From a virus (taxonomy: Duplodnaviria; Heunggongvirae; Uroviricota; Caudoviricetes), in IMG/VR virus record IMGVR_UViG_3300036670_000258, positions 97,412 to 161,411 of that record: DNA of 64,000 nt. One strand, given 5' to 3'. The notes beneath the pieces were generated by a model. That model was not told the origin of the DNA and did no database searches. It was given only the letters and a program-made list of their open reading frames with translations. Every line of letters begins with the position of its first letter. Position 1 is the first letter of the stretch. The translations under genes were made by a program, and so were the position numbers. Shown piece after piece: positions 37,478-38,765 of this stretch.

Positions 37478-37813
37478 TTAAATGTCAGTATTGCCTAATA
37501 CATATCCAGAGTAATCTAAAAATATGTTATAGTCTACTGTTATTTCATCGTCAATTGATATACCATTTGAATATAATATAAATTCTCCATTGGATAGAAT
37601 TGATGTTGAATTAGGAGTACGACTATCATTACAATATCTGCCTAAATCAGCTGTTTCGAACCATGGAATTTCCATCCCCTCCTGAAACAGACATCTTCCG
37701 TTTGGTGTCCAAGATGTAGTTGTCCATGTACCTATTATTTCGTTTAAAGGAATATCTTCAGTTGCAACTATCCCCATGCCTTCAATCTCTGATTGCCTTA
37801 TTGTGTATTTCAT
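37478..37813 (-). CDS. SET-domain protein (putative protein-lysine methyltransferase)
   Basis: GMGIVATEDIPLNEII..., RYCNDSRTPNS (compare NHSCxPN), DDEITVDYN (compare EELTxDY). Start taken at the internal Met to avoid overlap with the upstream gene. Confidence 0.55.
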   Translation of the reverse strand: MKYTIRQSEIEGMGIVATEDIPLNEIIGTWTTTSWTPNGRCLFQEGMEIPWFETADLGRYCNDSRTPNSTSILSNGEFILYSNGISIDDEITVDYNIFLDYSGYVLGNTDI

Positions 37814-37829
37814 AGTTTTAAATTTATTA

Positions 37830-38765
37830 TCATTCAACGGTTTTAACATTATGTGTTAATACGTTATTTGCATAATATGTGTGTGGATTATCAAGTGTCA
37901 TCTTATATACTGTTCTTTTTTCAATATTATAATCAATTGAAGATACTTCTATTATGTTTCCTTCTATATCATATAACATATCGTTTAATTGTATGTCAAT
38001 TAATGGTATAAATTTCCAAATACCATTTCTTTGTATTAATTGAGAGTGGCTAGGTGTTGCTTCAAGAAGTCCATTATTTATTATAATAGTATTATAAACT
38101 TCAACAGGTACTATTGATGCAATATTAGAGTTTTGACTTGTTGTTTTTATATAGTTGCTATTCCATTTATATAATTCATTAACGTCATTGGTGTCGGTAA
38201 GCGTTTCAATTTTAGCAGATAATAATACTTGATTTAGATATAGTAATTCTATAGCCGAAGTACTTCCATCAGGTAACGTTATCATTGTTCCTTTTACAAA
38301 ACATGAAATACTAGTATTCATAAACACTATATTTGAATCAAGCCCATCTTCTCCTGTGGAATTAACTGCTCTAACGAATACCTCATATTCTGTGTTAGGG
38401 CTAAGACCAAATACTGTATTAGGTGGATTAGTATAATTAGATGTTAATATACCATTAAAAAATGCCTTATAAGAGGATGCTCCTGATACTAAACTATGTG
38501 TAAATTTAATTGAACTACCTGAAGAAGCTGTTTGTTGTAGTTGTCGAGGAGCAGGCAACATTGCAGCTGACGCACGATGATCATATCCTCTCCATTCGCT
38601 ATATGATGCTGGATTACTGCTAGAAGGCCTATTAGCACTATTTTGATTTATAGCGCCATACGACCCGTTTTCTGCCGCATCTATTGAAAGTGTACTAGAA
38701 TTAGCTCTAGCTAATTCACTATTAATTGTACTTGCGGAAACAGGTCCACTTGCTGAAATTGCCAT
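37830..38765 (-). CDS. FN3-domain + C-terminal Hint (bacterial intein-like) domain protein
   Basis: FN3-like ...GLSPNTEYEVFVRAVNSTGE... followed by CFVKGTMITLPDGS...YANNVLTHN (Hint N- and C-terminal signatures). Confidence 0.55.
   Translation of the reverse strand: MAISASGPVSASTINSELARANSSTLSIDAAENGSYGAINQNSANRPSSSNPASYSEWRGYDHRASAAMLPAPRQLQQTASSGSSIKFTHSLVSGASSYKAFFNGILTSNYTNPPNTVFGLSPNTEYEVFVRAVNSTGEDGLDSNIVFMNTSISCFVKGTMITLPDGSTSAIELLYLNQVLLSAKIETLTDTNDVNELYKWNSNYIKTTSQNSNIASIVPVEVYNTIIINNGLLEATPSHSQLIQRNGIWKFIPLIDIQLNDMLYDIEGNIIEVSSIDYNIEKRTVYKMTLDNPHTYYANNVLTHNVKTVE

Follow-up and report, generated by a model that had tools for sequence, protein, structure and literature searches.

What brings an intein-like Hint domain and a SET-domain protein together in a phage genome? 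The question is posed by a 64,000-nucleotide (nt) stretch of the Caudoviricetes record IMGVR_UViG_3300036670_000258 (hereafter the window; all coordinates are window positions), where two open reading frames (ORFs), co-directional and both on the minus strand, fill positions 37478-38765. The upstream gene encodes a protein that ends in a Hint domain and the downstream gene a minimal SET domain. A preliminary description of this DNA had combined the two with a histone-H1-like gene nearby into a trio with a chromatin- or nucleoid-manipulation theme. SET methyltransferases are known mainly as chromatin enzymes, and the few bacterial and viral ones that have been studied target histones or histone-like proteins. 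We arrive at a different reading, to which we assign a probability of roughly 0.55: the pair is a conserved two-gene cassette of phage tail-fibre (host-recognition) modules, not a chromatin module, and the SET protein most likely has virion or fibre-module proteins as its substrates or partners. The parts of the pair are as follows.

37830-38765, minus strand: N-dom/FN3/Hint gene, 311 amino acids (aa); coordinates include the stop codon
38556-38765, minus strand: N-dom, aa 1-70, a conserved, uncurated N-terminal domain
38310-38552, minus strand: FN3 domain, approximately aa 72-152, from a sub-threshold Pfam fn3 match and a fold match
37848-38303, minus strand: predicted Hint/type-A bacterial intein-like (BIL) domain, Cys155-Asn306; the Cys155 codon, TGT, lies at 38303-38301
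37833-37847, minus strand: C-flank of five residues, VKTVE, with no +1 Cys/Ser/Thr and a predicted local distance difference test score (pLDDT) of about 32
37814-37829, minus strand: Hint-SET spacer, 16 nt; the genes do not overlap
37478-37813, minus strand: predicted minimal SET-domain gene, 111 aa, from Pfam PF00856 and a fold match

The start of the SET gene is placed at 37813 by its homologues, which begin with MKY or a close variant. The Hint ORF closes with a stop codon at 37832-37830, two more stop codons follow, and 16 nt lie between the Hint stop and the SET start; the overlap of the two genes that had been reported earlier is thus a short spacer. An overlap via the in-frame ATG at 37849 was rejected in view of the MKY starts: this ATG arises from the His-Asn-Val codons, is not conserved, and is out of frame in the close relative L001, where the spacer measures 20 nt. 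Also ruled out is SET as the frameshifted C-extein of the Hint gene, as the frames differ and three stop codons follow the Hint ORF, and no fusion of SET with Hint or N-dom was found among 271 proteins retrieved. Adjacency itself is well kept. In Flavobacterium crocinum a 113-aa SET gene, its product 38% identical to the window SET protein (E 2e-22), lies 3 nt downstream of the Hint homologue, and scans of genome and viral collections together with hidden Markov model (HMM) searches show 16 distinct loci in which SET starts at -11 to +20 nt relative to the Hint stop: the window clade, three unrelated viral contigs (L046/L131, L047 and L048) and some ten chromosomes of Flavobacterium, F. crocinum and F. 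olei among them. A further case is F. johnsoniae, whose SET frame starts within the last bases of the Hint frame. The adjacency persists down to approximately 36-45% identity in phages and Flavobacterium chromosomes alike. Neighbour joining of the Hint domains groups those with a SET partner into coherent lineages, separate from a DUF5977-Hint clade in which SET never occurs; SET has apparently been lost twice. The part ahead of Hint varies (N-dom plus FN3, DUF5977 plus FN3, or a 1030-aa protein) while Hint and SET stay together, and the linkage is therefore with the Hint lineage. Hint-SET is a conserved two-gene cassette.

The 311-aa protein is built from three parts, a 70-aa N-terminal region, FN3 and, at the C-terminus, Hint (Cys155 to Asn306). 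Thirty aligned homologues all have C155, H240, H305 and N306, and T237 is nearly invariant among them; these residues make up the class-1 Hint catalytic set of Cys1, block B TxxH (T237-x-x-H240) and terminal His-Asn, and they are conserved in the wider family as well. The AlphaFold model of the Hint protein (pLDDT 87.5) finds as its best Foldseek matches in the PDB Tetrahymena BIL2 (E 3e-10), a C. thermocellum BIL domain (template modelling (TM) score 0.85), mini-inteins and the Hedgehog autoprocessing domain, and its FN3 part matches the FN3 domain of chitinase A1 (1k85, TM 0.82); Pfam fn3 scores 19.9 bits on the protein, below its cut-off. Residue conservation, the model and the fold matches therefore bear out the earlier call of an FN3 plus intein-like Hint protein. 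Five residues (VKTVE) follow the Hint domain, and the +1 residue after Asn306 is Val. The same holds widely: among 92 distinct related Hint proteins, nearly all carry 1-11 residues after His-Asn, and in 90 the +1 residue is not Cys, Ser or Thr, the two exceptions being archaeal and having long C-terminal exteins. A lysine at +1 or +2 after His-Asn is conserved across the Hint family (Lys308 in the window). Type-A BIL domains are characterized by a terminal His-Asn, the lack of a +1 nucleophile, dominant cleavage and possible ligation by aminolysis (PMC4031507); with its terminal His-Asn and no +1 nucleophile, the window domain is therefore a type-A BIL domain, not an intein. On the evidence of sequence and model, then, gene 37830-38765 ends in a complete Hint domain of the type-A BIL kind, for which autoprocessing is predicted. 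A canonical intein is ruled out by the five-residue C-flank and the missing +1 nucleophile, and an intein inserted in a conserved host protein was likewise rejected: only 2 of 147 newly retrieved N-dom representatives, of median length 169 aa, carry Hint.

Hint domains of the same kind occur elsewhere. On viral contigs L049-L123, dozens of large phage proteins (approximately 500-1440 aa) end in one, some of them with Laminin_G_3 or a DUF5122 beta-propeller, and after the Hint domain there is often just one Lys (HNK-stop) or IK. The terminal Hint domain in these contigs is a widespread, putative autoprocessing module of uncultured phages.

The product of the downstream gene scores 26.0 bits against Pfam PF00856 (cut-off 22.4), and the profile of its family matches solved Set2, MLL and SETD8 chains with E values of 1e-7 to 1e-4. 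Its model (pLDDT 93.3) has chlorovirus vSET (3kma) as best PDB match, followed by SETD8, MLL and EZH2, and the best matches in BFVD are viral SET proteins; the SET assignment of the preliminary description thus stands. The window protein carries the motifs GMG (aa 12-14), N62-D63-S64..P67-N68 and E90-I-T-V-D-Y95. Alignment A2 shows no exception to Tyr95, at the catalytic position, and A3 hardly any; N62 and P67-N68 are invariant or nearly so across the SET family, at least 90% of whose members have His in the NHS motif. By these profile and model matches, gene 37478-37813 is a minimal, vSET-like SET domain with predicted methyltransferase activity. A word-indexed search of 5.8 billion non-redundant proteins with the window SET protein returned two near-identical homologues only; a profile search extends the family to 52 clusters, almost all of which have 100-130 aa and are associated with Flavobacterium. 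The F. crocinum SET protein gave no tblastn match in 50,697 phage records. Distant SET relatives of 121-124 aa were observed on freshwater phage contigs (L128 and L124-L126), among 2-oxoglutarate-Fe(II) (2OG-Fe(II)) oxygenases, an Asp/Arg hydroxylase, a methyltransferase and DUF6734, a gene group that is possibly a protein-modification cluster. On L128, a 655-aa protein with two tandem Hint domains (L128:4708-6675) is encoded two genes upstream of the distant SET gene.

Which company the cassette keeps is best seen from N-dom, with the consensus MALxxxGxxSxxxINxELGR...SLDAAENGSY.AIN..S..PSS.NPA..SEWRGYNH. This domain has no match in Pfam, and in PHROGs it has marginal matches of unknown function only. 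A phmmer search of 1.84 billion representative proteins yielded 384 N-dom clusters (50% identity) at E<=1e-3; in the best 150 of these the match begins at or before residue 14, and in nearly all at residue 1-8. The conserved domain comprises approximately 65 aa, and its HMM recognizes the window protein with an E value of 1e-31. N-dom proteins are typically composed of N-dom and one small variable, often Cys-rich domain, with a median of 169 aa among the matches listed. Among 23 distinct N-dom genes, 13 come immediately after a fibre gene ending in Peptidase_S74, and N-dom proteins without SET have the same placement by fibre genes. In the conserved loci Hint-SET is usually the last part of a block of tail-fibre genes. 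The stop codon of a 1053-1349-aa protein ending in Peptidase_S74 is where the N-dom-Hint gene begins in both F. crocinum and F. olei (the F. crocinum protein has faint phage fibre-repeat matches as well); SET closes the gene block there, and unrelated metabolic genes come next. The F. johnsoniae block contains Gp53-like_C and Phage_tail_APC, and a 114-kb viral contig has the gene order collagen+S74 fibre, DUF7936, N-dom-Hint, SET. In the window, the gene ahead of N-dom-Hint is PspC, not a Peptidase_S74 fibre gene. A conserved N-terminus joined to a hypervariable distal domain beside a fibre gene would correspond to the usual layout of fibre-associated receptor-binding or accessory proteins.

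A second connection to fibres comes from podophages. A tblastn search of the same 50,697 phage records with the window SET protein gave a single, weak match, to the C-terminus of gp30 of Rhodoferax phage P26218 (L134 4419-5294). Residues 190-285 of gp30 are a SET domain (hhalign 97%, E 5e-11) with the motifs GTG, NHS and DY, and its first 140 residues correspond to 'short tail fiber protein' (E 3e-28) and 'tail fiber adhesin' (2e-22) in PHROGs; the whole protein corresponds to phrog_34170, which is also matched marginally by the window SET protein. Proteins of Pseudoalteromonas phage PH1 (L135 3917-4747) and of the metagenomic podophage MW202744 (L136 4001-4762) align with gp30 over 85-93% of its length and score 34.3 and 27.0 bits, respectively, against Pfam SET, both above the cut-off. 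Two further metagenomic records and phage zth2-2 align with gp30 over 91-97%; the Pfam scan covered PH1 and MW202744. The SET domains of P26218 and PH1 match the profile of the window SET family (hhalign 96-97%), and the fused podophage proteins keep the GxG, NHS and DY motifs. The fusion genes of P26218, PH1 and MW202744 are all located in capsid, tail and packaging regions, that of P26218 adjoining a DNA-ejection gene. By sequence comparison, SET is thus joined to fibre anchors in one chain in some phages, independently of the others, in which its gene comes right after that of a Hint-terminated protein.

Selection acts differently on the parts of the cassette. Relative to two relatives, the ratio of nonsynonymous to synonymous substitution rates (dN/dS) is 0.04-0.08 for Hint, at a dS of approximately 0.4, and 0.37-0.62 for the N-extein, the far lower value of Hint adding a further line of support to the Hint call; for SET it is approximately 0.2, which indicates purifying selection. 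The closest relative of the window, the 170-kb viral contig L044 (IMGVR_UViG_3300037295_000360), has a Hint gene of 91% protein identity in which the Cys1 codon has changed from TGT to TGA (L044:10463-10465, equivalent to window positions 38301-38303). The L044 gene consequently ends exactly at the predicted cleavage site, and its 154-aa product, also recorded separately as P0125, has the commonest size in the N-dom family. Changes have built up in the Hint remnant of L044, one of them in block B, and constraint on the remnant is relaxed, with a dN/dS to L001 of 0.25, compared to 0.04 between intact copies; SET is intact. The N-extein of L044 is window-like (dS 0.086) whereas its Hint region is L001-like (dS 0.067 versus 0.437 to the window), and this abrupt change in dS at approximately 38300 therefore marks a recombination breakpoint at the N-extein/Hint junction.

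Taken as a working mechanism, the first gene would be a member of a large phage family of small proteins in which N-dom is combined with a variable distal domain, here FN3, with Hint having been added in its lineage. Cys155 would undergo an N-S acyl shift to give a thioester at the Ser154-Cys155 bond, which would then be resolved by hydrolysis or by an amine, and cyclization of Asn306 may shed the five-residue tail. The mature product would comprise approximately 154 aa (N-dom and FN3), and Hint would be a disposable autoprocessing module with a role analogous to that of the Peptidase_S74 intramolecular chaperone of tail fibres. From the same message, the second gene would provide a vSET-like minimal SET lysine methyltransferase, inherited together with the Hint lineage, whose action most likely involves proteins of the virion or fibre module, as substrates or as partners; methylation of their lysines during assembly is one example. 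The domain identities, catalytic residues, tight conserved linkage, fibre surroundings in other genomes and purifying selection are observed; what we infer is that Hint cleaves itself off, that the window protein associates with the virion or fibre, and what SET acts on.

The surroundings of the pair in the window contain these further features.

39047-39069, minus strand: terminator-like hairpin (ACTCCATATT, loop, AATATGGAGT) with a T run, ahead of PspC; delimits the unit on its 5' side
38841-39017, minus strand: PspC-domain membrane mini-protein, 58 aa, Pfam PspC 35.1 bits; first gene of the hairpin-bracketed unit
37429-37452, minus strand: terminator-like hairpin, 26 nt past the SET stop; 3' boundary of the unit
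34938-35114, minus strand: Hc1 histone-H1-like gene, Pfam Hc1 (PF07432) 72 bits; outside the conserved cassette

The two hairpins are near-identical on the coding strand, with PspC, the Hint gene and SET between them. Given this bracketing, the Hint gene and SET are probably on one transcript. Further copies of the hairpin family, ACTCC[A/G][T/C]ATT-loop-AAT[A/G][T/C]GGAGT plus T run, are found in the window at 24977-25000, 42949-42972 and 61061-61084, and such recurrent hairpins could be cassette boundaries as well as transcript ends. The Bacteroidetes -7 promoter motif TAnnTTTG is not enriched in the window (88 matches against approximately 104 expected), and a sigma-70 promoter scan gave background level only. 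The gene order PspC-Hint-SET recurs in L001-L004, PspC accompanying the pair in the close phage clade only. The neighbours of the pair are small minus-strand genes, namely a DNA ligase (36084-37388, 434 aa), PspC, Hc1 and an exonuclease-like gene whose counterpart in L001 shows merely a faint RNase_T match. Where the window has the single 434-aa ligase, L001:10426-13062 and L002:3402-6038 show three ORFs (272 aa; 295 aa, DUF7487; 304 aa, matching Intein_splicing weakly); the ligase of L001 and L002 may be interrupted by an intein or homing element. Elsewhere in the window (G+C approximately 30%) are a collagen-like tail fibre, thymidylate synthase and endolysin. The 773-aa collagen-like fibre gene (19776-22097) lies in a locally G+C-rich segment (0.37 versus approximately 0.30), and the next gene downstream (19162-19779) overlaps the fibre stop codon and is without N-dom. 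A nucleotide search of phage records gave no close relative, the best match being Flavobacterium phage immuto with 66% identity over 500 bp. The organism-named homologues of both genes are almost all from Flavobacterium, and the window is therefore very probably from a large Flavobacterium-type phage.

Several findings weigh against a tail-fibre cassette with an active methyltransferase. In the window the pair adjoins no fibre gene and sits among the DNA ligase, the exonuclease-like gene, PspC and Hc1, so that the fibre link rests on other genomes. The Pfam Hint models all remain below their cut-offs (Intein_splicing 20.4 bits versus 35.8, PT-HINT 17.6 versus 27.7, Vint 12.9 versus 27); profile detection, named in the preliminary description as the test that could refute it, fails for Hint when taken literally, and it is the stronger evidence from conserved residues and fold that carries the Hint call. 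Of the SET motifs, GxG and EITVDY are present as had been described, but the supposed NHSC-like motif reads NDS, the window SET protein and its two close relatives having Asp63 where the His of the NHS motif is expected. In mutant studies SUV39H1 and SET7/9 are reportedly inactive once this His is lost. The GxG motif is missing from many chromosomal SET homologues, there is no Hint protein within 8 kb of the more distant SETs (P0122), and an S-adenosylmethionine (SAM)-dependent enzyme on the virion surface would lack its cofactor. In the N-extein no lysine is conserved between the window and L001, and this part is therefore not an obvious SET substrate; nor was a SET-specific conserved lysine found in Hint as candidate substrate, K308 being conserved with or without a SET partner. 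In view of the NDS motif, the lack of a conserved N-extein lysine and a neighbourhood of DNA metabolism, our preference for lysine methylation of structural proteins during assembly is a weak one.

Were the SET protein to methylate the phage Hc1 or a host nucleoid protein, the Hint protein would be an accessory under shared regulation or a neighbour with no relation to it. Such a role would agree with the best fold match, vSET being packaged in virions and acting on host chromatin, and with the DNA metabolism around the pair in the window. The Hc1-like gene noted earlier at 34938-35114 is real, with 72 bits, and lies 2.4 kb from the pair on the same strand. Moreover, the cpnSET protein of C. 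pneumoniae methylates Hc1 (PMC3980110), and owing to this precedent a relationship between SET and Hc1 stays a live minority hypothesis. However, Hc1 is linked to the pair in four close-relative loci only (L001, L002, L044 and L045) and was not found within approximately 6-10 kb of it in any more distant locus fetched for comparison, whereas SET tracks the Hint lineage and fibre modules and, in podophages, is fused to tail-fibre N-domains. The proposed trio of Hint, SET and Hc1 is thus not supported outside the close relatives, where the pair usually adjoins tail-fibre genes, and we consider a nucleoid function unlikely, if still the foremost of the alternatives. Next to it, at similarly low odds, comes a SET protein that is non-catalytic and serves as structural fibre-tip module or as assembly chaperone for the upstream protein. 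Small genes just after receptor-binding protein genes usually have a role as structural or assembly partner or chaperone, and SET is positioned directly downstream with stop and start codons overlapping or nearly so. Its distal C-terminal position in podophage short tail fibres, the NDS motif of the window clade and the chromosomal copies without GxG point the same way, and purifying selection marks a functional gene. Retained enzymology is what the (near-)invariant N62, P67-N68 and Tyr95 argue for, as do the fused podophage forms, in which GxG, NHS and DY are all kept.

The Hint domain could, at the other extreme, be a single-use ligase, its thioester being resolved by an amine of the co-translated SET or a fibre protein so that the N-dom-FN3 anchor becomes covalently attached. 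Tetrahymena BIL2, the best structural match, joins a ubiquitin-like domain to lysines of its targets. Aminolysis is the route by which type-A BILs ligate (PMC4031507), the separate genes here correspond to the fused anchor-SET protein of P26218 and PH1, the genes are tightly coupled, and SET is linked to Hint and not to any particular N-terminal part. Such a conjugation is nevertheless improbable in our view, given that L044 has kept SET with its Hint knocked out, that the SET N-terminus has no conserved Cys, Ser or Thr, and that Hint proteins without SET are far more numerous. A polymorphic-toxin-like cassette, with Hint as pre-toxin processing domain and the downstream gene as toxin or immunity partner, is largely refuted: no toxin domain follows Hint, which is succeeded by 1-11 residues in nearly all relatives, the downstream gene is SET, and no secretion or trafficking domain is present. 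SET is not known as an immunity or toxin fold. The weak PT-HINT Pfam matches, the variable N-terminal parts and the recombination at the Hint boundary would agree with a toxin cassette, which we regard as very improbable all the same.

The preferred tail-fibre cassette can be set against systems already known. With the type-A BIL domains of C. thermocellum (2lwy) and Tetrahymena BUBL (BIL2, 6y75), the window domain shares the HINT fold, Cys1, TxxH, C-terminal His-Asn and lack of a +1 nucleophile, and these domains are also found in variable, non-housekeeping proteins; unlike them, the window-type Hint ends its protein, with essentially nothing to splice onto, is part of a phage protein paired with SET, and scores below the Pfam thresholds. 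Hedgehog/Hog (1at0) is a structural match and similarly has a C-terminal Hint that frees an N-terminal functional part via a Cys thioester, whereas the window Hint is without sterol-recognition region, keeps the terminal His-Asn and has no known adduct. The Peptidase_S74 chaperone is likewise a self-removing C-terminal module of phage fibre and tailspike proteins, but its fold and chemistry are unrelated to Hint and the analogy is functional only. vSET of Paramecium bursaria chlorella virus 1 (3kma) is, like the window protein, a virus-encoded minimal SET of approximately 110-120 aa without pre-SET or post-SET; the two differ in that identity is approximately 20%, the window host is bacterial and without histones H3/H4, NDS replaces NHS, and the genomic partner is a Hint protein. 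Chlamydial cpnSET/Hc1 also combines a bacterial SET with Hc1, a linkage that here is not kept beyond close relatives. In the podophage short-tail-fibre-SET proteins (phrog_34170), unlike in the window, SET is in one chain with the fibre N-domain, there is no Hint, and the hosts are Proteobacteria. A literature search that took in few subscription journals found no description of a SET-tail-fibre link, a Hint-SET cassette or SET-fibre fusions, and for Hint or BIL domains together with tail fibres it returned, at incomplete coverage, nothing relevant. Both domain families are well known; the elements that appear to be new are the conservation of Hint with SET as a cassette, the association of this cassette with fibre modules, and the proteins in which SET is fused to a tail fibre.

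These results connect a miniature SET family with phage host-recognition modules in two independent ways, as conserved partner of a Hint-terminated protein and in fusion with short tail fibres. Modification of virion proteins by the SET enzyme, if it occurs, would represent a new way of modifying structural proteins in phages, and a SET protein carried in the virion would be a counterpart to vSET among prokaryotes. Should Hint act as a ligase, the outcome would be Hedgehog- or BUBL-style conjugation in a bacteriophage, a virion armed with a lysine methyltransferase, and the post-translational build of the anchor-SET tail fibre that P26218 encodes as one chain. The natural TGA at the Cys1 codon of the 91%-identical relative and the NDS variant provide ready experimental contrasts. 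The presence of a C-terminal Hint at the end of many large phage proteins, finally, points to an under-appreciated autoprocessing strategy of phage structural proteins beside the S74 chaperone.

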